Assembly (NCBI GenBank): GCA_002376045.1
Contig: DFNM01000195.1
Coordinates: forward strand, 1-39,210
DNA: 39,210 nt
From: Firmicutes bacterium UBA3567
GTDB taxonomy: Bacteria; Bacillota; Thermosediminibacteria; Koleobacterales; UBA3567
Reading direction: 5' to 3'
Shown here: positions 19,119-29,475 of the stretch, in pieces
Numbering within the stretch: position 1 is the stretch's first letter
How the letters are laid out: each line of letters starts with the position of its first letter
Notes under the pieces: model-generated
What the model saw: the letters and a program-made list of their open reading frames with translations, nothing else
What the model was told of the DNA's origin: nothing
Databases searched by the model: none
Translations under genes and position numbers: made by a program

Positions 19119-20408
19119 TCAGCATTCTTTGTTGAGTTCTGTACTTCGCGATACACCATCCAGCATTTTAAACAGCTCATCAATGTATTTTACGGTTTTG
19201 GCACCATTTCTGATTAAATCTCTATAAATTTCCACAGCTTTTCCACCGGTGTAATCCTTCCCGCCTATAGGGGTTGTATCAATGAGTATAACCTGTTTCC
19301 CCCTCTGCTGGGCTTTCTGCACAGCCAGCAGATTGTTGAAATTTCCCTTTCCAAAGGGAATATTTGCCACAACGATCACATCTGCATCCTCCATTAATTT
19401 CAAAGCCTTTTCCATATTTTGCGTAGTTACCGGTGAAAAAGGTGGTGCTTCTACCATGGGAATCTTCAAAAACCTTGCCTTCTCCCAGTCTCCGTCCCCC
19501 ACATTTATTGTCCCTACGCTCAATTTATAACCCTGGTAAACTAACATCTCCATTAAAGCACAGGCAATTCCCCCACCACAGACAAGGTGAATTTTGATTT
19601 TGCTATTTCCGGCTTTTTTCTGCTTCTGGGCCAATAATGTCACATGGGGGCATTTGTAAATGGGATGTTGTTTTATTATAACTCTGCTGTTGTAAACATC
19701 CATGATGTTTTTCTCGGTGATAACCTGTTCCGGCTGACCTGCTGCATAGATCTTCCCCTGGTGGAGCAGGATCAGCTGGTCACAATACTGGGCAGCCAGA
19801 TTTAAATCATGAAGCACAACGATAATAGTAAGATTTTGAGTTGTATTCAGGTCTTTGAGAAGGTCCATTATTTCAATCTGATAGTTTATATCAAGGTGTG
19901 AGGTGGGTTCGTCTAAAAGCAGCACCCGGGGTTCCTGGGCCAAAGCCCTGGCTATTACAACCCGCTGACATTCACCACCACTGAGTTCTGTTATCAATCT
20001 ATCTTTCAAATGTTTGGTTTTTGTCACTTCCAGTGCCCAATCTACTATTTTGTAATCCTGTGCGGTTTCTCTCTGCAATCTCCCGATATAGGGATTTCTC
20101 CCCATCAACACAACTTCCTCTACAGTAAATTCAAAGGGAATATCTGTTTTCTGAGTTACAACAGCCATCTGCCTTGCCAGTTCCCTGGGAGTTATAGAAT
20201 ATACATTTATTCCCCGCAGATGCACGCTCCCCTGAAGGGGTTTCAAAACCCTGCTAATGGTTTTTAAGAGGGTTGACTTGCCCGAGCCATTGGGGCCTAT
20301 GATCCCTAAAAAATCCCCTTTTCTTATAGCAAACTGAATATCCTTCAATACCGGTTCTGCAGCATATGAACACGTTATTTCCAACACATTGACAACAATT
20401 TCAGACAC
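19119..20408 (-). CDS. FecE/BtuD-type ABC ATPase fused to a ~165-aa uncharacterised C-terminal domain
   Basis: N-terminal 260 aa: GPNGSGKST, LSGGECQRVVIARAL, LLLDEPTSHLD, VLHDLN. The C-terminal extension KIKIHLVCGGGIACALMEML...VVANIPFGKGNFNNL...ILIDTTPIGGKDYTGG looks like a Rossmann/flavodoxin-like alpha/beta domain. Confidence 0.88.
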   Translation of the reverse strand: MSEIVVNVLEITCSYAAEPVLKDIQFAIRKGDFLGIIGPNGSGKSTLLKTISRVLKPLQGSVHLRGINVYSITPRELARQMAVVTQKTDIPFEFTVEEVVLMGRNPYIGRLQRETAQDYKIVDWALEVTKTKHLKDRLITELSGGECQRVVIARALAQEPRVLLLDEPTSHLDINYQIEIMDLLKDLNTTQNLTIIVVLHDLNLAAQYCDQLILLHQGKIYAAGQPEQVITEKNIMDVYNSRVIIKQHPIYKCPHVTLLAQKQKKAGNSKIKIHLVCGGGIACALMEMLVYQGYKLSVGTINVGDGDWEKARFLKIPMVEAPPFSPVTTQNMEKALKLMEDADVIVVANIPFGKGNFNNLLAVQKAQQRGKQVILIDTTPIGGKDYTGGKAVEIYRDLIRNGAKTVKYIDELFKMLDGVSRSTELNKEC

Positions 20409-20477
20409 TCTGTTTCCCCCTTTAGCAGCTCCATCAACCGACCACTATACCCGCCCTGCTCGACTTAAATCAAACTT

Positions 20478-21506
20478 TCAAGAACTTTTTTTCTTTTTTA
20501 AAAGATATATAAAAAACGGGCCTCCGAACAGGGCTGTAACGATTCCCACTGGAAGCTCTGTAGGAGATATTACGACCCTTGCCAGAGTATCTGCAAGCAG
20601 TAGAAACACTCCTCCAGTTAGTGCTGATGCGGGAAGCAGCCAGCGGTTATCCGGACCTATTATAAGTCTTACGACATGGGGAATAATCAGACCAACAAAC
20701 CCGATTAATCCAGCGGACGCCACAGCAGCAGCCGTTAAAATCGAGGCTGCCGCCAGTAAAATCCTTTTAACCCTCTCTACATCTATACCCAGGTGTGCAG
20801 CTGTATCTTCTCCCAACAAAAGTATGTTTAAATCTTTTGAATACACAAAAGCCACTGCCATGCCTACTGCAAAATACATGGAAGAAGATACTACATAATT
20901 CCAGCCTCTTGAAGCAAGGCTCCCCATCATCCAGAAAACAACATGCCCCAGCTTGTTTCCACTGAAATATATCAGCAGCGAAACGACAGCGGAAAGAAAG
21001 GCACTCACAGCTATACCTGAAAGCAAAAGGATTAAAACCGGAACCCGCTGACCTACCCGAGCCATGTTGTATACCAGAAAAACAGTGAAAAGGGATGTGA
21101 AAAAAGCCATTAAGGATACTGCTCCTACACCCAGAAAAGTGAGGTTCAGGGAAAACACTATAGCAAGGGCGGCCCCAAGAGATGCTCCTGATGAAGCACC
21201 GATGATATAGGGGCCTGCCATGGGATTTTTGAATATACCCTGGTAGATGGCTCCTGCCACACTCAGCGAAGCCCCTACCAGCACTGCCAGCAAGTTTCTG
21301 GGCATTCTGATCATAAGTATAATAGTTTCATGTGTGGGTTTCCAGGTGTTGGCTATTGCATTACCTACAATGGGCAGTTTGCTGATTAAAATTTTAAAGA
21401 CTTTTTCCCCATCGATGGGAACACTTCCTATGCTGTTTGTGAATATTATAGCAAAACACAGCAATAAAAGCACCGTCAAAACATAATTTTTTTTGTTTTT
21501 TATCAT
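20478..21506 (-). CDS. FecCD-family permease (BtuC-like)
   Basis: 342 aa, about 9-10 TM helices. FecCD hallmarks are present: MPRNLLAVLVGASLSVAGAIYQG, NPMAGPYIIGASSGASLGA and GIVTALFGGPFFIYLL. Confidence 0.9.
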   Translation of the reverse strand: MIKNKKNYVLTVLLLLCFAIIFTNSIGSVPIDGEKVFKILISKLPIVGNAIANTWKPTHETIILMIRMPRNLLAVLVGASLSVAGAIYQGIFKNPMAGPYIIGASSGASLGAALAIVFSLNLTFLGVGAVSLMAFFTSLFTVFLVYNMARVGQRVPVLILLLSGIAVSAFLSAVVSLLIYFSGNKLGHVVFWMMGSLASRGWNYVVSSSMYFAVGMAVAFVYSKDLNILLLGEDTAAHLGIDVERVKRILLAAASILTAAAVASAGLIGFVGLIIPHVVRLIIGPDNRWLLPASALTGGVFLLLADTLARVVISPTELPVGIVTALFGGPFFIYLLKKKKSS

Positions 21507-21533
21507 GGATGGCCACCTTTTAAAGGAATTCGA

Positions 21534-22496
21534 TTATTTCGCCAGCTCAGGATGGATGTATTCAAAGAACTTTTCCAGAGCATCTACGATTCTCGGACCG
21601 GGACGGTTAACAATATCAGGGTCGATACCGTATATTTTGCCCTGTTTTATGGCGGTTATGTTTTGCCATCCAGGCCTGTCAGCTATGTTCTCTATCTTGT
21701 TCGAACCATGATCATACTGATGAATAATTATATCAGGGTTTCTTTCGATAACCACTTCCTCACTGAGCTTTGGATATTTACCTTCGGCATCTCCTGCTAA
21801 GTTGATACCTCCTGCAAGGGTTATAAGGCTGTCAACAAAGCTGCCGGGACCCGCTGACATCACCGGATCGTCCCACAGTTCATAGTAAACCAGAGGTTTG
21901 TCTTCTTCTTTCAGCTTCTCAGTCTTTTCTTTTACAGCTTCAATCCTGCTCTGCATATCAGCCGTCAGCTGCCCGGCGGCTTCAGACCGGCCAGTAGCAT
22001 CTCCAACCTTCTTTATTGAATTTATTATCTCGGATATATTGGACGGATTTACTACGAATACGGAAATATCAAGCTTTTCAAGCTGTTCCACCGTTTTTTT
22101 GTGCATTGAGGTGGCAAAAACCAGGTCCGGTTCAAGCTCAACAATTTTTTCAATATTGGGTTCACTAAAACTTCCTACTTTTGTTTTGGTAAGGGCTTCC
22201 TCGGGATAATTGCAGTACTCCGTTACACCCACAATTTGGTCTGTAAGTTCCAGAGCGAAAAGTATTTCCGTGTTGGAAGGAGCAAGAGATACAATCCTCT
22301 GAGGCTGTTTGTTTATAACAACCTCTCTGCCCATATCATCCACTATGGTTTTGGGAAATTCCTGGGACTGTTCTTTATCATTATCATTAACTTTTGTCAA
22401 TTGAGTTTGACCGCAGCCAGCAGTCAAAACCGCAATCAAAATTATCAATAAAGCAGCTACAACAATGACTGTTTTGTTCCGGTTCATTTTCATCAT
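21534..22496 (-). CDS. Periplasmic-binding-protein type 2 lipoprotein (BtuF-like substrate-binding protein)
   Basis: Signal peptide with the lipobox LTAGCG. RIVSLAPSNTEILFALELTDQIVGVTEYCNYP and EPDLVFA are typical of BtuF/FhuD-class binders. It is the first gene after a cobalamin riboswitch. Confidence 0.88.
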   Translation of the reverse strand: MMKMNRNKTVIVVAALLIILIAVLTAGCGQTQLTKVNDNDKEQSQEFPKTIVDDMGREVVINKQPQRIVSLAPSNTEILFALELTDQIVGVTEYCNYPEEALTKTKVGSFSEPNIEKIVELEPDLVFATSMHKKTVEQLEKLDISVFVVNPSNISEIINSIKKVGDATGRSEAAGQLTADMQSRIEAVKEKTEKLKEEDKPLVYYELWDDPVMSAGPGSFVDSLITLAGGINLAGDAEGKYPKLSEEVVIERNPDIIIHQYDHGSNKIENIADRPGWQNITAIKQGKIYGIDPDIVNRPGPRIVDALEKFFEYIHPELAK

Positions 22497-23266: not shown

Positions 23267-23524
23267 TTATTTATAATTAGATATGTAAAAATACTCTTTA
23301 GATGTTTTATAGTTTTTATCCAACTTATAACAAAACACCTCATCAAAATTTGTTTCTTTTAAATACGTATACATCTCTAAAAGATTTCTAAAAGCATCTT
23401 TAGCGTCTATTCCCGATGAAAATCCGATCACTTGCAAATTATCAATATCTGGTAAAATAGATTCTGAATTGGGTTGAAATGTATATCCTTCAATTGTTAA
23501 AAAAATATAATTATTTATATCCAT
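23267..23524 (-). CDS. Hypothetical 85-aa protein, translationally coupled to the upstream HKD nuclease gene
   Basis: Intact ORF whose ATG overlaps the last 10 nt of the nuclease gene. No family was recognised. Same AT-rich composition as its neighbour. Confidence 0.6.
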   Translation of the reverse strand: MDINNYIFLTIEGYTFQPNSESILPDIDNLQVIGFSSGIDAKDAFRNLLEMYTYLKETNFDEVFCYKLDKNYKTSKEYFYISNYK

Positions 23525-24327
23525 AATTTCATATACCTTCCTTTACCTAAAAATTTTATTAACCCTAAATCCCTAAGGTTTTGCAGTTGCTGTCGTATTT
23601 TTGCTTCGATGTTTTGATTTTCCGGATATATACATTGGAAATAGGCCTTATATTGATAGACATCGTTTAATTCAAAGATAAACTTATCAATTTTGTTTAT
23701 TTGCTTAAATACTGCTAGCTTCCAACCTGAAAGGCAACTTTCTATAGTTTTCACGCCCCCAGTATATAAGTCATCTTGCGGAATATCCTTACCAATAAAG
23801 CTATCTAAATTTATATTATGAGGAAATTTGTACTTTTTTTCTGTAGGAATATTACTAAGAATATCACTAACAGTATTTACAATTTCTTTAGTAACCTCAC
23901 CGCTAAATTCACTGCAGAAAATAGAATTAAAATCTTTACATACCTTGTCTACAAAAACATAATCATTCGAAAGAATACCATACTCATAATTGTAGCTTAA
24001 TCCATAATTTGTAAGATTAGCCGAGGTCACAATAACTACTTTTTTATCAAAAATACAAATTTTAGCATGCAAATTTTGGTAATTTCTTACCCTTCCGTTT
24101 TTATCTAAAATATAATCTATTGCTTCAATATCGGAAGCTCTTTTATAAAAACTTGAAAGATTAAAATTGGTAATTAGATCAAAATCCACCTTCTCCTTTT
24201 TATATTTGTAGATTTCTTCTATAACATCGTATTTGATAAAAGGAGAACAAATTTGAATACTCTCGATTGTTCCAGAAACACATTGTATAAATTTATTTTT
24301 CCATGGGCTATTAATAATTTCTAACAT
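23515..24327 (-). CDS. Phospholipase-D (HKD) superfamily nuclease with a C-terminal winged-helix-like domain
   Basis: A single exact HKD motif, HAKICIFDKKVVIVTSAN, fits HxK-x4-D-x6-(G/T)SxN. The C-terminus AKIRQQLQNLRDLGLIKFLGKGRYMKLW resembles the DNA-binding winged helix found at the ends of many restriction endonucleases. Confidence 0.8.
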   Translation of the reverse strand: MLEIINSPWKNKFIQCVSGTIESIQICSPFIKYDVIEEIYKYKKEKVDFDLITNFNLSSFYKRASDIEAIDYILDKNGRVRNYQNLHAKICIFDKKVVIVTSANLTNYGLSYNYEYGILSNDYVFVDKVCKDFNSIFCSEFSGEVTKEIVNTVSDILSNIPTEKKYKFPHNINLDSFIGKDIPQDDLYTGGVKTIESCLSGWKLAVFKQINKIDKFIFELNDVYQYKAYFQCIYPENQNIEAKIRQQLQNLRDLGLIKFLGKGRYMKLWI

Positions 24328-24751: not shown

Positions 24752-24804
24752 AAAAAAATTGTCGTCGACCCTCCAGTAACTTATATCCATGGAGGTCGAG
24801 ACAA
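24752..24804 (-). terminator. Rho-independent terminator of the opine-dehydrogenase-family gene
   Basis: The minus strand reads UUGUCUCGACCUCCA...UGGAGGGUCGACGACAA (about 15-bp stem) followed by UUUUUUUA, 20 nt after the stop at 24823. Confidence 0.75.
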
Positions 24805-24822
24805 TTCCCTTTACCATCTTTA

Positions 24823-25971
24823 CTATGCCACACTACCTTCCAATGCTTCTTCATCAGTAAATCCTTCTTCGTAGACATCCCCTTCCGTGACAAGCTGATA
24901 AATCATTTCAGGGCTCATGTTCACCAATCCGAGCTTTTCAGCAGTCCTACCTTCTTTCCAGTAATCCACATCATGCATTGCACATGCCATCTGGATGACT
25001 GAATTAATTATAGGAGTTTCTACACCTACCATCTTCCCTATTGAAGAGATCGGAACCAGGCTCTCGGGAACATCCTCAAAGATATACCTGGTATATATAT
25101 TATCGGGTGCCTTTAATCCCTTATATCCTTTTGCGTTCTGTATTGCTTCATAAAGGTTCGAGCCTTCTGCATCATAGGTATACTTCAACCATTCCATAGC
25201 CGTAATGGCTTTCGCTCCCAGGGCTTTTGCTACTCTGACTCTCTCTTCATCCATTTTCTCTATGACTTTGGTAACTGATGGAGAAATTCCTTCTATATAA
25301 TACTGGAAATCTCCCTTGGTGGTTTCAATTCTTGCGCTGTTCAGTATCGTGGGGGCCGGGTGAAATATTGCACCAATGTTATTGAAACTTGTTTCCAGAA
25401 CATTTGAAGCAGGTATAAACTGGGGATAAGCCACATTGAGTTTTTCAACAACCTTCATGGTTTTATACGCAGGTATGGCAGCAACAGCAACAACGTTTTT
25501 TATGCCATAAATCTTAGCTCTTGCAGGACCTATTACCCTGCAGGCGTAAATGAATGTCTGAGCCTCAGCTATGATGACATCCTTATTAATCCCATGGGTC
25601 TTTAAAATATTTCTGAACTCCAGAGCACCACCAGTCCTGCCGGGATTGAGCACCACTATCTGCCCCTCTTCCAGATGGGGTGCGATATTATGAGCGATAG
25701 CTCTGTGAGCCGTGGCGGGAGTGGTAACCATTATCACATCAGTATTCCTTATAGCCTTCTCAATATCAATAGTCACCAGATTCAATCTTGCAAAACCTTT
25801 TTCTACTCCTTCGAGCTGTATACCTCCTCTAGCCCTAATTGGTTTTATTCTTTTTTCACTCCTGTTATATAGATTGACATCAAATCCCATAAGAGCCAAA
25901 TGTGCCGCCATTGCACACCCGCCATTGCCTGCTCCTATTACAGCAAAACGAGGTTCTTCCCGCCTATTCAT
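24823..25971 (-). CDS. NAD(P)-dependent octopine/nopaline (opine) dehydrogenase family protein
   Basis: 382 aa. N-terminal Rossmann motif FAVIGAGNGGCAMAAHLALMGFDVNLY. Collinear with the opine DH family through the C-terminal helical domain (NIGAIFHPAPTILN...YYIEGISP...YIFEDVP). AAGGGAGG RBS. Confidence 0.88.
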   Translation of the reverse strand: MNRREEPRFAVIGAGNGGCAMAAHLALMGFDVNLYNRSEKRIKPIRARGGIQLEGVEKGFARLNLVTIDIEKAIRNTDVIMVTTPATAHRAIAHNIAPHLEEGQIVVLNPGRTGGALEFRNILKTHGINKDVIIAEAQTFIYACRVIGPARAKIYGIKNVVAVAAIPAYKTMKVVEKLNVAYPQFIPASNVLETSFNNIGAIFHPAPTILNSARIETTKGDFQYYIEGISPSVTKVIEKMDEERVRVAKALGAKAITAMEWLKYTYDAEGSNLYEAIQNAKGYKGLKAPDNIYTRYIFEDVPESLVPISSIGKMVGVETPIINSVIQMACAMHDVDYWKEGRTAEKLGLVNMSPEMIYQLVTEGDVYEEGFTDEEALEGSVA

Positions 25972-26010
25972 ATATCAAGCCTCCCTTACTTTAGTTTTTT
26001 GGTTTTTGGG

Positions 26011-26044
26011 GATAAAAAAGACTATGGAGATTTTCCATAGTCCT
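26011..26044 (-). terminator. Intrinsic terminator of the c-di-AMP riboswitch expression platform
   Basis: The minus strand reads GGACUAUGGA-AAAUC-UCCAUAGUC followed by UUUUUUAU. It lies between the aptamer and the RBS of the 25971 gene. Confidence 0.75.
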
Positions 26045-26054
26045 GCTGACCATT

Positions 26055-26185
26055 CTGGCAATCCCCTGGAAAGCTTACGAGGTTAGCTGACGGATTCGGG
26101 TCCAGGTAACCCTACCTTTCACAAGAAAGGATTCACCCCAAATGATGGTTCCCCCGCTTCTTAAAAAAGAATTCAGCTTAAGGCT
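26055..26185 (-). promoter_or_regulatory. c-di-AMP riboswitch (ydaO-yuaA motif)
   Basis: The minus strand reads GAAGCGGGGGAACCAUCAUUUGGGGUGAAUCCUUUCUUGUGAAAGGUAGGGUUACCUGGACCCGAAUCCGUCAGCUAACCUCGUAAGCUUUCCAGGGGA. It carries the conserved GCGGGGGA, GGGGUGAAUCC, GGUAGGG and CCCGAAyCCGUCAGCUAACCUCGUAAGC blocks of the ydaO motif. Confidence 0.88.
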
Positions 26186-26631
26186 GACATATTGCTTTTT
26201 ATTATATTACATCTTGTATTTATTATATAACAATTTTATCTTTATGTCAAATAATTCCTTATTGCACGTAATCCTTAAAATAAAACATTTCTTTCGCTGT
26301 AAAAAGTCGCGCAGCGGAATATCAACGTTATTTGGCGAATTATAGCATGCTGATAAAAAACAACATATCCTGGATTCAGGATATGACAGACCTGATTGAG
26401 CTGACATGTTATATAATATAAGTAAGCCCGGTCATAGTAACAACGGTTGAAAGAATAACAAGGTATAGGCATTTTATTTAATAGCAGGATAACTTTTTTA
26501 TGGGATTTTACCTTTTGCTTGTCGAATCCACGTTTGATTAAATGGTTATAATTGGGTATATATAGCACGTCCAAAAAGATGTATAATAAAAATAACGGTA
26601 AATTTTAAAACATAAAAATGGGGGAATAAAA

Positions 26632-29475
26632 TTGTCCAACAACACAAAGCTTAAAAAAATCTCAGCTGTGCTCCTCATAGTAGTGATGCTTCTTGGTTCA
26701 TCAACACCTCTGTATGCAGGTGATAAAATCCCGGAACCATTCATACTCTACGAAACCGTTGATGTTCAGCCCATTTCAAAGGGTGTAGAATACACAAAAA
26801 TAACACGGTTCACTTCCAAGGGATGGTTAAACTTTCACGTCCTTAAAGCAGAACTGAATGATAATATCATGATCGATACTTTAACAGGCAAAAAAGGAAT
26901 ATCTGCTACAGAGACTCTGAAGGATATGGCGGAAGAAACCGGCAGCATCGCTGCTGTTAATGGAGATTTCTTTTCCTTGTCAGCTCCTCCATTTACTATC
27001 GGCCCCATCATCAAAAATAGCAAGCTGCTCTCAACCCCTCTAGATAACAACATGGGTGTGCTTTATTTTACAAAAAAAGGCACTCCCAGAATACATACTC
27101 TTATCTGGAATGGCATGGTAGAAATCAAAGGAAAACAGTTCCCCCTTGGTGCTGTAAACAAAGGCTATGTTCTACCCGATAAACTAACCCTTTACACCCC
27201 GGAGTGGGGGCTTTCAACTCCAGGGAATAGTATGTATAAGGGTGTGGTAGAAATTGTAGTAGCAGGAAATAGAGTGATGGAAATAAGAAAAAACATGCCC
27301 GGCACAAAAATCCCGGAAAAGGGTTTTGTGCTGGCAGGCAGGGAAAAAGGTGCTGATTTCCTGGTTGAAAACTGCAAAGAAGGTTACACCATCAACCTCA
27401 ACATAGAAACCTTTCCCGAGCTGAAAAATATCATGACTGCTATTGGCGGAGGGGCGGTATTGGTTAAAAAAGGTGAAATCCCGCATTTCTCCCATAACAT
27501 AACCGGGTATCATCCGAGAACGGCAGTGGGTTTTTCAAAAGACGGCAGACAAATGTTTATGGTTGTTGCGGATGGAAGAAGCAAAAAGAGTGTGGGTATG
27601 ACCCAAGAAGAGCTGGCAAGGTTTATGATAGAATTGGGAAGTTATTATGCTCTAAACCTTGATGGGGGAGGCTCCTCCACCATGGTGGCACGCCCCCCGG
27701 GTCAGGAAAATCTCACGATATTGAATACGGTATCGGGATCCAGACCCAGAAAAATATTAAACGGTTTGGGTATAATCACATCATACAAAAAAGGCAGACT
27801 CTACGGTCTAAAGATTCTATCAAAATCACAAAATGTAGCCCTTGACAGCATCAGAAAGCTCGAAGTTGTAGGTTATGATCAGTTCTATAACCCTGTTAAA
27901 ATCGATACAAAAGATGTTAAATGGAAGGTTTCACCCAGGGATTTGGGCCTTATAGAAAAGGGAGTTTTTAAAGCCCTGAAACCTGGAAAAGGCATAATAG
28001 AGGCTCGGATTGGCAGAATTAAAACCCAGGTGCCGATAAAGGTTTTGTCTGACCCCCATTATCTTGTGGTTTTACCAGAGAGGGTAACCATCAAACCCGG
28101 AGAAAAAGTGGAGTTTCAGGTCCAGGTTGTTGATGCTGATGGTTTTTCTGCCCCACTGGAACTTGAAGATATAAACCTGCATGTTGCTGATGATATTGGA
28201 AATGTTTCTGGTAATGTGTTAACCGCCGGCTTTCAGGCCAAATCCGGTGCCGTCATTGCAAGTTTTAATGGTGCGAGGGGTGGTGCCCTGGTAAGAGTCG
28301 GAATCACCCAAAGAACTATCTTTGATTTCGAAGAAGCCACCAACACAGCTTTTCTGGGCTATCCACCCCAGGTGGAAGGTGGTTTTGAGATTGCATTACC
28401 GGAACTTCCCTTTGATAACAATGCAGGTAAACTCTCGTACGGTTTCCTTGATATCAAACAAGCTCAGGCTGCGTATCTGGTCTTCCCCCAGGGCATCAAA
28501 CTGCCTGAGGCTGTAGAAAAACTGGGTCTGTGGGTTTGGGGAAACAGGGGAGGAGGCCACAGCCTGAAAGCCCTTGTGGTTGACGGAAATGGAGAAAACC
28601 ACTATATACACTTTTCAAAAGAGGTAAACTGGTGCGGCTGGCAGGAGGTTAAAGCTGATATCTCTGCCTTTAAAACACCCCTGACATTAAAAAGAATTTA
28701 CCTTGTTGAAACAAATCAGACAAAACAACAAACAGGTTATGTTTATCTTGACAATTTAACGGTTTATGCTCCTCCTGATTATGACAAAACCATTCTTCCA
28801 CAAAGGCCAAAAATCAAGGATCCCAATCAAAGACCCGTAGATGAAGGAGATAAAAAACTGTCATTTGTGGTTTTGGCAGATCCCTTGATAACCAGAAACT
28901 ATAACCTTAAAAGCTATAACGTATTAAGGCACATACTCACAGCAACTGATACAGACTTTTCTATCTTGGCAGGAAGAGTCACAGGAAACAGCGATTTCAC
29001 TTCATGGGACGCTGTTTCTACATGGCTTTCACCCTTTGACAACCTTTATGTAACGGGAGAGAGGGGGTATGCCGCAGCCTGTGATAATAACCGCTTTGTG
29101 TTTTTAAACATTGAAAAAGGGGGAGTAAGGAAAACTGACCCTTCCCAGTGGAAGCTGCTTCTCAGAGAGCTTGAAAAAGCCCGGAACGACAACGTTTTTG
29201 TGGTGTTAAACCGTCCCCTTAATTTTTTCCAGGATGAATTAGAAAAAGAACTCCTAATAAACCTTTTGAGCCAACATCTGGAGAACCAAAACAGCCAGGT
29301 ATGGATTGTGTGTGCAGGAAGCTCTGACTTTGAAAGTTACAGGTTAAAGGGGGTTCATATTCTTCAACTACCCGGATTTAAAACAACAAAACCTCACTTC
29401 CTGAGGTTTGTAATAACAAAGGATGGAGAAATAACCTATCAACTTCAAAGCCTTGAACTTGAAAACAAAATCTAA
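26632..29475 (+). CDS. Secreted multidomain protein: phosphodiester glycosidase (NAGPA/DUF2233-like) domain, Ig-like repeats, C-terminal degenerate phosphoesterase-like region
   Basis: TTG start after GGGGGAA, then a signal peptide. AAVNGDFF, HPRTAVGFSKDGRQMFMVVADGR and ALNLDGGGSSTMV are hallmarks of the phosphodiester glycosidase family. The middle region has Big_2-like beta repeats. Confidence 0.85.
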   Translation: MSNNTKLKKISAVLLIVVMLLGSSTPLYAGDKIPEPFILYETVDVQPISKGVEYTKITRFTSKGWLNFHVLKAELNDNIMIDTLTGKKGISATETLKDMAEETGSIAAVNGDFFSLSAPPFTIGPIIKNSKLLSTPLDNNMGVLYFTKKGTPRIHTLIWNGMVEIKGKQFPLGAVNKGYVLPDKLTLYTPEWGLSTPGNSMYKGVVEIVVAGNRVMEIRKNMPGTKIPEKGFVLAGREKGADFLVENCKEGYTINLNIETFPELKNIMTAIGGGAVLVKKGEIPHFSHNITGYHPRTAVGFSKDGRQMFMVVADGRSKKSVGMTQEELARFMIELGSYYALNLDGGGSSTMVARPPGQENLTILNTVSGSRPRKILNGLGIITSYKKGRLYGLKILSKSQNVALDSIRKLEVVGYDQFYNPVKIDTKDVKWKVSPRDLGLIEKGVFKALKPGKGIIEARIGRIKTQVPIKVLSDPHYLVVLPERVTIKPGEKVEFQVQVVDADGFSAPLELEDINLHVADDIGNVSGNVLTAGFQAKSGAVIASFNGARGGALVRVGITQRTIFDFEEATNTAFLGYPPQVEGGFEIALPELPFDNNAGKLSYGFLDIKQAQAAYLVFPQGIKLPEAVEKLGLWVWGNRGGGHSLKALVVDGNGENHYIHFSKEVNWCGWQEVKADISAFKTPLTLKRIYLVETNQTKQQTGYVYLDNLTVYAPPDYDKTILPQRPKIKDPNQRPVDEGDKKLSFVVLADPLITRNYNLKSYNVLRHILTATDTDFSILAGRVTGNSDFTSWDAVSTWLSPFDNLYVTGERGYAAACDNNRFVFLNIEKGGVRKTDPSQWKLLLRELEKARNDNVFVVLNRPLNFFQDELEKELLINLLSQHLENQNSQVWIVCAGSSDFESYRLKGVHILQLPGFKTTKPHFLRFVITKDGEITYQLQSLELENKI

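Follow-up and report, generated by a model that had tools for sequence, protein, structure and literature searches.

A conserved c-di-AMP riboswitch associated with an opine dehydrogenase gene in Thermosediminibacteria and other lineages

In the 39,210-nt contig DFNM01000195.1 of Firmicutes bacterium UBA3567 (assembly GCA_002376045.1; this whole stretch is referred to below as the window), a riboswitch of the cyclic di-AMP (c-di-AMP) class precedes a gene for an opine dehydrogenase (ODH), and the same arrangement recurs throughout the class in which the Genome Taxonomy Database (GTDB) places this bacterium. The association between riboswitch and ODH is far beyond chance and, as judged by the sequences, regulation of the enzyme by c-di-AMP is very probable. 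The aptamer itself belongs to a known class and is ordinary within it; the novelty lies in the output that it controls and in the lineage-specific uncoupling of this output from a putative B12-dependent partner. The explanation which we favour as a whole, with a probability of about 0.55, is that an OFF switch would govern an ODH with acidic substrates, whose product would be an anionic solute.

Results

Architecture of the riboswitch leader

A cmscan search of the whole window returned two Rfam families above threshold, RF00379 (ydaO/yuaA class) among them. The c-di-AMP aptamer occupies positions 26057-26188 of the minus strand, reaches 101.7 bits, the gathering score being 38 (E 3e-23), and covers the model in full length (positions 1-134 of 134). 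The first-pass annotation, which had been made from the letters alone, had placed a ydaO-yuaA aptamer here; the score, strand and completeness of the match bear this out, and its location needs correction only at the end coordinate, 26185, which is 3 nt short of 26188. A perfect predicted sigma-70 promoter (TTGACA-17-TATAAT, 12 of 12 matches; 26250-26222, minus strand) would start transcription at about 26215, roughly 27 nt ahead of the aptamer. Promoter, aptamer and the ATG of the ODH open reading frame (ORF) at 25971 share the minus strand, the aptamer lying in the 5' leader between promoter and ORF. A Shine-Dalgarno sequence, AAGGGAGG (25987-25980, minus strand), can be read 8 nt before the ATG.

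The leader also contains an intrinsic terminator (26014-26044, minus strand; hairpin 26044-26018) composed of the stem GGACUAUGGA/UCCAUAGUCU, the loop AAAUC and a following U6, with a hairpin dG of -13.3 kcal/mol. A U-rich tract and a hairpin of conserved sequence (AGCUAUGGA...UCCAUAGCU) were found in 35 of 35 leaders, the count being based on reading of the leaders together with a relaxed hairpin scan. Across 23 distinct leaders 95.7% of the cells of the terminator helix are paired, and compensatory changes occur in 4 of its 10 pairs; the covariation score was reached by none of 500 shuffles, and slid controls drop to 24-48% paired. By these features the intrinsic terminator is a putative expression platform able to transmit ligand binding. 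The earlier claim of an aptamer plus intrinsic terminator directly ahead of an ODH-family gene is thus supported in each of its parts, by the cmscan match, by the leader hairpin with its U6 and by the Pfam assignment of the product (PF02317).

A candidate antiterminator strand is provided by the G-rich 3' tail of the aptamer, GGGGAUU (26060-26066, minus strand). Read in the sense of transcription (26066-26060), it is complementary to AAUCUCC (26032-26026), that is, to the loop of the terminator and the top end of its 3' arm, and would form with it a 7-bp duplex which was equalled by 6 of 200 shuffles. Analogous tail duplexes of 5-10 bp may be drawn in the other 34 leaders, some of them with compensatory changes; most are individually not significant in comparison with shuffles, and the MAFFT alignment leaves the G-rich tails out of pairing register across the leaders. 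The GGGGAU part of the tail (26061-26066, minus strand) also pairs with AUCCCC (26008-26013) just past the U-tract, enclosing the terminator in the minimum-energy fold.

The terminator and the ATG of the ODH are separated by 47 nt, in which no promoter-like site was found. If the aptamer were a relic, or had no regulatory role here, the ODH would have to be driven independently. We regard this as highly improbable in view of the short promoterless spacer, of the full-model match of the aptamer and of the order aptamer-terminator-ODH, which is kept in all assessable orthologues across five families.

Conservation of the riboswitch-ODH linkage

The genome to which the window belongs (G000) is a 3.03-Mb assembly, 93% complete, with three RF00379 elements. 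The other two are located ahead of genes for a TrkH/KtrB-type K+ transporter and a DPBB lytic transglycosylase; K+ transporters and cell-wall hydrolases are textbook members of the c-di-AMP riboswitch regulon. A DAC-domain diadenylate cyclase is encoded as well (PF02457, 153 bits; G000:C8:5083-5439), and the host is accordingly predicted to make c-di-AMP.

The GTDB class of this genome comprises 34 species genomes, 32 of them with an ODH orthologue. RF00379 (78-106 bits) lies directly upstream and on the same strand in all 29 orthologue loci that were fetched; by coordinates it is directly upstream also in G013, and G011, the one case left over, is cut by a contig end. Altogether, every assessable ODH orthologue of the class (31 of 31) carries the aptamer, and in 8 class genomes the ODH leader is the sole RF00379 of the genome. 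Judged by this distribution of aptamer matches, the ODH gene is linked to the c-di-AMP signal no less tightly than K+ uptake.

In a sample of the phylum (401 genomes) the aptamer was found within 1.5 kb of 11 of 25 further ODH loci, one of these having tandem aptamers. In G081, one genome of the phylum, tandem c-di-AMP aptamers (L040:2589-2715, 100 bits, and 2855-2978, 104 bits) stand ahead of an operon that joins the ODH to the B12 protein described below. RF00379 also precedes the ODH orthologues of Caldanaerobacter subterraneus KB-1 (117.5 bits), Thermoanaerobacterium thermosaccharolyticum, Oxobacter pfennigii and an Armatimonadota metagenome-assembled genome. It is absent at the ODH in the representatives of Anoxybacter, Atribacterota, Bacteroidota, Chloroflexota, Acidobacteria and Ignavibacteriota, and a single-protein search for related loci yielded 3 distant loci only, without riboswitches. 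An Atribacterota operon of Ddl-like, ODH and B12 genes (L076) lacks the c-di-AMP aptamer; the gene directly upstream of it encodes a Cache/HAMP chemoreceptor and is itself preceded by a c-di-GMP-I riboswitch (L076:444-526, 76.9 bits). The first-pass annotation knew of no characterised riboswitch-ODH pair, and in the searchable literature no relevant text linked the c-di-AMP riboswitch, or ydaO, to an opine or octopine dehydrogenase, with the reservation that the supplements of the primary ydaO papers may mention one.

The opine dehydrogenase and its predicted specificity

The ODH ORF (24823-25971, minus strand) encodes 382 aa. It is followed by an intrinsic terminator of its own with a long GC-rich stem and U7 (about 24752-24806, minus strand; dG -25.3 kcal/mol, z -4.9, none of 200 shuffles as stable), beyond which the next gene encodes an unrelated PLD/DpnI_C-type nuclease. 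The ODH unit is therefore monocistronic, and in this respect the initial description of a single gene with a strong terminator holds. The protein matches Octopine_DH (PF02317, E 3.9e-51) over residues 188-333 and NAD(P)-binding families over residues 8-109, and it has the Rossmann motif GAGNGG (GxGxxG); none of the NCBIfam models reached its cut-off. The nearest solved structure is 1BG6, the N-(1-D-carboxyethyl)-L-norvaline dehydrogenase of Arthrobacter sp. 1C (CENDH or ArODH), with E 8e-92 and 44% identity over 346 residues. The catalytic residues His202, Arg292, Tyr293 and Asp297 (ArODH numbering) are all kept in the window ODH and in 54 relatives.

Telek et al. (2024) characterised six hot-spring metagenomic ODHs (mODH-45, mODH-47, mODH-48, mODH-49, mODH-55 and mODH-582) which prefer L-aspartate, then L-glutamate, with pyruvate, and most of which use NADPH (PMC10787698). 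Reciprocal double mutants in that study demonstrated that Arg111 together with Gly198 (ArODH numbering) switches the specificity to L-Asp/L-Glu, and Arg at ArODH position 35 was shown to mark NADPH acceptance (PMC10787698). The window ODH has Arg112 and Gly199 at the positions equivalent to 111 and 198, this acidic amino-acid pair being invariant in its clade, and Arg37 at the position equivalent to 35. It is 50-53% identical to mODH-45, mODH-47 and mODH-48, the three sequences that were readable from the OCR-noisy text of the supplement. In the ODH tree, from which the locus L057 was left out because a wrong gene had been picked in it, the mODHs fall inside the ingroup that holds the window clade, and ArODH forms a long outgroup branch. 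These residues, the identity level and the common ingroup together place the window ODH in the acidic-amino-acid, NADPH-accepting subclass, and acidic-substrate ODH chemistry appears to be a good, if not compelling, prediction for it.

The same features bear on the suggestion of the first-pass annotation that the product might be a metallophore. The enzymes of the CntM type, which take part in the synthesis of staphylopine-like metallophores, belong to the same Pfam family. The genome, however, encodes no NAS/CntL homologue (PF03059 is absent), which makes this the weakest of the rival explanations; neither CntK nor an exporter or importer is adjacent, the specificity residues are those of the Asp/Glu subclass, and the conserved partner of the ODH is a B12 mutase instead. 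We consider synthesis of a staphylopine-type metallophore to have only a slight chance of being correct.

The putative B12-dependent partner protein

Families f4 and f5 of the class, like nearly all other lineages, have the stop codon of the ODH gene overlapping or abutting the start of a gene for a protein of about 550 aa whose N-terminal domain is of the B12-binding type; the two genes are translationally coupled. This family had been predicted to be B12-dependent, and recognised as novel, by Zhang, Rodionov, Gelfand and Gladyshev (2009), who left its function open; in their words it is "always adjacent to" a pfam02317 dehydrogenase, at times accompanied by genes of Ddl-like and asparagine-synthase-like type, and the riboswitch link goes unmentioned in their paper (PMC2667541). 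When the partner was compared with the PDB by sequence and by profile, only its N-terminal B12 domain was detected, and a part related to the glutamate mutase epsilon subunit (GlmE) escaped notice. The GlmE-like barrel was seen only in a fold search, made with the structure of the C. subterraneus member as predicted from an alignment of seven sequences (pLDDT 81, pTM 0.75). The best fold matches of this model in the PDB are the glutamate mutase epsilon subunits 6H9E_B (E 7.6e-14) and 1CB7_B, with E of about 1e-13, some 450 aligned columns and TM 0.57-0.65 at an identity of only 15-16%; ornithine and lysine aminomutases come next. On this model the B12 partner is predicted to be glutamate-mutase-like.

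Among the 401 genomes, 71 have both the ODH and the B12 protein, 8 the ODH only, 6 the B12 protein only and 316 neither; the co-occurrence in 71 of the 85 genomes with either gene corresponds to a Fisher p of 5e-62, uncorrected for phylogeny. This co-occurrence is relevant to another possible function of the ODH, that of a redox and carbon-overflow valve. As a terminal pyruvate reductase, the enzyme would consume NAD(P)H and tie up pyruvate and glutamate or aspartate at low c-di-AMP, without formation of any osmolyte. Opine dehydrogenases do act in this way in anaerobic invertebrate muscle. The enzyme family and its dependence on pyruvate agree with such a role, the organisms are fermentative anaerobes as judged by the names of their sources, and in Bacillota c-di-AMP is tied to pyruvate and glutamate metabolism, pyruvate carboxylase being one of its receptors. 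A strong co-occurrence with a B12 mutase would, however, be unexpected for a simple redox sink, and the NADPH signature at position 35 suggests a biosynthetic rather than a fermentative function. In addition, the ODH is the sole c-di-AMP riboswitch target in 8 genomes, which argues for a core role in the main function of the signal. We think that a redox valve is unlikely.

The gene neighbours of the pair suggest yet another product. The opine, or the product of the mutase, could be a building block which is passed on to ATP-grasp (Ddl-like) or asparagine-synthase-like ligases and incorporated into a peptide-like or cell-envelope molecule, so that the ODH would belong to the cell-wall branch of the regulon. 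Ddl-like ATP-grasp genes adjoin the ODH or lie directly downstream of it in several lineages (L038, L041, L046, L052, L059 and L076), asparagine-synthase-like genes follow the ODH-B12 pair in the Armatimonadota locus, and one of the RF00379 targets of the window's own genome is a cell-wall enzyme. Both ligase associations had already been noted (PMC2667541). Nevertheless, no ligase belongs to the unit here or in most members of the class, the minimal conserved module being the ODH with or without the mutase, and this explanation is in our opinion rather improbable.

Uncoupling in the window's order and the ODH paralogues

In the window's genome and in three other genomes of its order (G001, G002 and G003), the riboswitch-controlled ODH is not followed by a B12 gene. 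The four uncoupled ODHs form a single clade (support 99/96) nested among clades that have both the riboswitch and the B12 gene, which indicates that the uncoupling happened once. Since the window ODH is orthologous to the ODH half of the ODH-B12 pair, the monocistronic state is derived. Each of the four genomes encodes exactly one B12 protein elsewhere, at a distance of 2 Mb from the ODH in the complete genome G003, and neither RF00379 nor any other Rfam element was found in front of these unlinked B12 genes. The uncoupled and the B12-coupled ODHs show no fixed difference in any alignment column, so the chemistry of the enzyme is probably unchanged.

The B12 gene of the window's genome is on contig C60 (G000:C60:3254-4921) and does not adjoin the riboswitch ODH. 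It is part of an ODH-MutL/GlmL-B12 mutase operon without a riboswitch (L065, C60:732-4921), in which the MutL/GlmL gene precedes the B12 gene and the ODH is a distant, long-branch paralogue. The B12 protein of this operon is 67-74% identical to those of other families versus 58-60% to those of its own class, and the operon is therefore probably xenologous. A further ODH paralogue shares a cluster on C62 (C62:8079-12200; L067) with a fused TRAP DctM transporter and an ornithine cyclodeaminase/mu-crystallin gene, which looks like a unit for opine uptake and catabolism. The third stands alone on C242 (C242:2257-5879), after pyrR and a divergent gene of 590 aa; this site is syntenic with that of a standalone B12-mutase-like gene in G003 and G001 (L070, L071). 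None of the paralogues on C60, C62 and C242 has a riboswitch.

The C62 cluster is of interest with regard to the direction of the reaction. ODH reactions are reversible, and ArODH originates from an opine-utilising Arthrobacter; the riboswitch-controlled enzyme might thus oxidise an opine to amino acid and pyruvate, as occurs in opine-consuming soil bacteria, and the same genome does hold a cluster of catabolic appearance. The catabolic-looking paralogue is, however, a separate long-branch lineage outside riboswitch control, whereas the riboswitch-controlled unit includes neither a transporter nor a further catabolic gene, and the NADPH signature also argues against catabolism. We would give the catabolic direction a small probability.

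Other features of the window

Upstream of the riboswitch promoter a divergent gene (26632-29475, plus strand) encodes a 947-aa secreted protein with an NAGPA phosphodiester glycosidase domain. The stretch 23267-24327 (minus strand), between the ODH terminator and the leader of a cobalamin riboswitch, holds the PLD-family nuclease gene, whose product has a DpnI_C (Dam-replacing HTH) domain, and an overlapping 85-aa ORF without a Pfam family; the two look like an inserted restriction-type island. The cobalamin riboswitch (RF00174; 22668-22932, minus strand, 43.9 bits) precedes the B12-uptake genes (19119-22496, minus strand), which encode a BtuF-like binding protein, a FecCD permease and an ABC ATPase of 429 aa, longer than the usual BtuD. 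Only 2.3 kb separate this operon from the ODH gene, which usually has a B12 enzyme gene as its partner; G003 does not show this neighbourhood, which is probably a coincidence.

In G003 (L063:3695-6156 and 2374-2435) the riboswitch-ODH unit is convergent with genes for a myo-inositol-1-phosphate synthase and an IPCT/DIPPS-type bifunctional protein, and a fluoride riboswitch is found nearby. These di-myo-inositol-phosphate neighbours were not used as an osmolyte context for the ODH, as the genes are absent from the window's genome.

Discussion

Proposed mechanism

In the B. subtilis kimA and ktrAB leaders, the binding of c-di-AMP represses expression. By analogy, we infer a ligand-OFF logic for the ODH leader. 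Transcription would start at the consensus promoter (26250-26222). At high c-di-AMP the folded aptamer would let the hairpin 26044-26018 form, and the transcript would end before the ODH. At low c-di-AMP, the state of K+ demand or osmotic upshift in which K+ uptake is derepressed, read-through would follow and the ODH alone would be expressed. The enzyme may then reductively condense pyruvate with L-aspartate, L-glutamate or a close analogue into an N-(1-carboxyethyl) di- or tricarboxylate. Among such analogues, a likely one would be 3-methylaspartate, delivered by the unlinked glutamate-mutase-like B12 enzyme of the same genome. For a mutase whose product is then capped by a second enzyme, the AblA/AblB route to N-epsilon-acetyl-beta-lysine offers a precedent, and thermophiles typically use anionic solutes. 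The opine formed may be a metabolically inert polyanion that accompanies K+. Both the substrate and the physiological role are read from residue signatures and genomic context, and accumulation of the ODH product together with K+, as an organic anion or compatible solute, is a tentative part of the scheme. The first-pass annotation had also connected the enzyme to osmotic and K+ homeostasis; the acidic signature and the other RF00379 elements, ahead of a K+ transporter and a lytic transglycosylase, make this link plausible and leave it conjectural.

Several observations weigh against the proposed explanation. The candidate antiterminator invades the loop but no more than some 3 bp of the stem, and in most leaders it is not significant relative to shuffles; because shuffled tails often pair as well, we present it as a suggestion. 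When the whole leader is folded thermodynamically, its minimum-energy structure still contains the terminator, as is common among kinetically controlled switches. The co-occurrence statistic for the ODH and the B12 protein is inflated by shared ancestry, and in the window's order the mutase is outside riboswitch control, making the coupling of both enzymes here uncertain. Among the compatible solutes in the searchable literature there is none of opine type. Finally, the mODHs have a modest kcat and a millimolar KM for L-Asp (PMC10787698), so that the native substrate may differ from L-Asp; the modest kinetics on aspartate might be accounted for by 3-methylaspartate as the true substrate.

A broader form of the proposal may be considered, in which the ODH and the B12 enzyme make an undescribed anionic opine that serves as K+ counter-ion or compatible solute in many anaerobes, many of them thermophilic, and that constitutes the primary output of the c-di-AMP riboswitch in the class. 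The candidate opines would be N-(1-carboxyethyl)-3-methylaspartate, N-(1-carboxyethyl)-aspartate or N-(1-carboxyethyl)-glutamate. As only the ODH kept the riboswitch in the window's lineage, its step would be the regulated and committing one. In this extended form the idea is speculative, and we hold it to be doubtful.

[quoted passage not shown] Almost all of its characterised outputs are transporters and cell-wall enzymes; here the output is an enzyme of biosynthetic type, which is the most conserved riboswitch target of the whole class and often the only one. Three threads are joined by this link: an orphan B12 enzyme family pointed out in 2009, an ODH subclass with an unusual Asp/Glu specificity, recognised in 2024 and without a known physiological role, and the c-di-AMP signal. 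A functional hypothesis becomes available for all three together, and it is testable, since the operon and its riboswitch are present in the cultured C. subterraneus and in Thermoanaerobacterium, a genus with genetically tractable species.

Comparison with known systems

The dehydrogenases of staphylopine, pseudopaline and yersinopine synthesis (CntM) share with the window ODH the Pfam superfamily and the type of reaction. They differ from it in the specificity signature, and the window ODH has no CntL, CntK or transporter context. With ArODH (1BG6) it shares the fold, as judged by sequence, and the catalytic residues. ArODH, however, has Ala111 and Asn198, which correspond to hydrophobic amino acids, and Ile35, which corresponds to NADH, whereas the window ODH has Arg and Gly, and Arg, at these positions. 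The mODHs agree with the window ODH in Arg111/Gly198, Arg35, the catalytic residues and the tree ingroup; they were characterised only in vitro, as biocatalysts without genomic or physiological context (PMC10787698), while the window ODH, known by its sequence, has a regulatory input.

The B12 partner resembles the glutamate mutase GlmS/GlmE with GlmL of Clostridium cochlearium (1CB7, 6H9E) in its predicted GlmE-like fold, in the B12 domain and in the neighbouring MutL/GlmL gene. Unlike glutamate mutase it is a single chain, with 15-16% identity, and it is encoded outside the window.

With regard to regulation, a close parallel is offered by B. subtilis kimA (ydaO) and ktrAB (yuaA), in which the same RF00379 aptamer family is followed by an intrinsic terminator and whose OFF-when-bound logic is to be expected for the window leader too. 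The target in the window is instead a soluble dehydrogenase of biosynthetic type, neither a transporter nor a cell-wall enzyme. The system to which the window ODH belongs by descent is the ODH-B12 pair of Zhang et al. (2009), as exemplified by the C. subterraneus operon (L072). The window ODH is orthologous to the ODH of this pair, and RF00379 stands ahead of the pair in the other members of the class as well as in relatives that have been cultured. In the window's order, in contrast, the ODH and the B12 gene are unlinked, and the ODH alone has retained the riboswitch.

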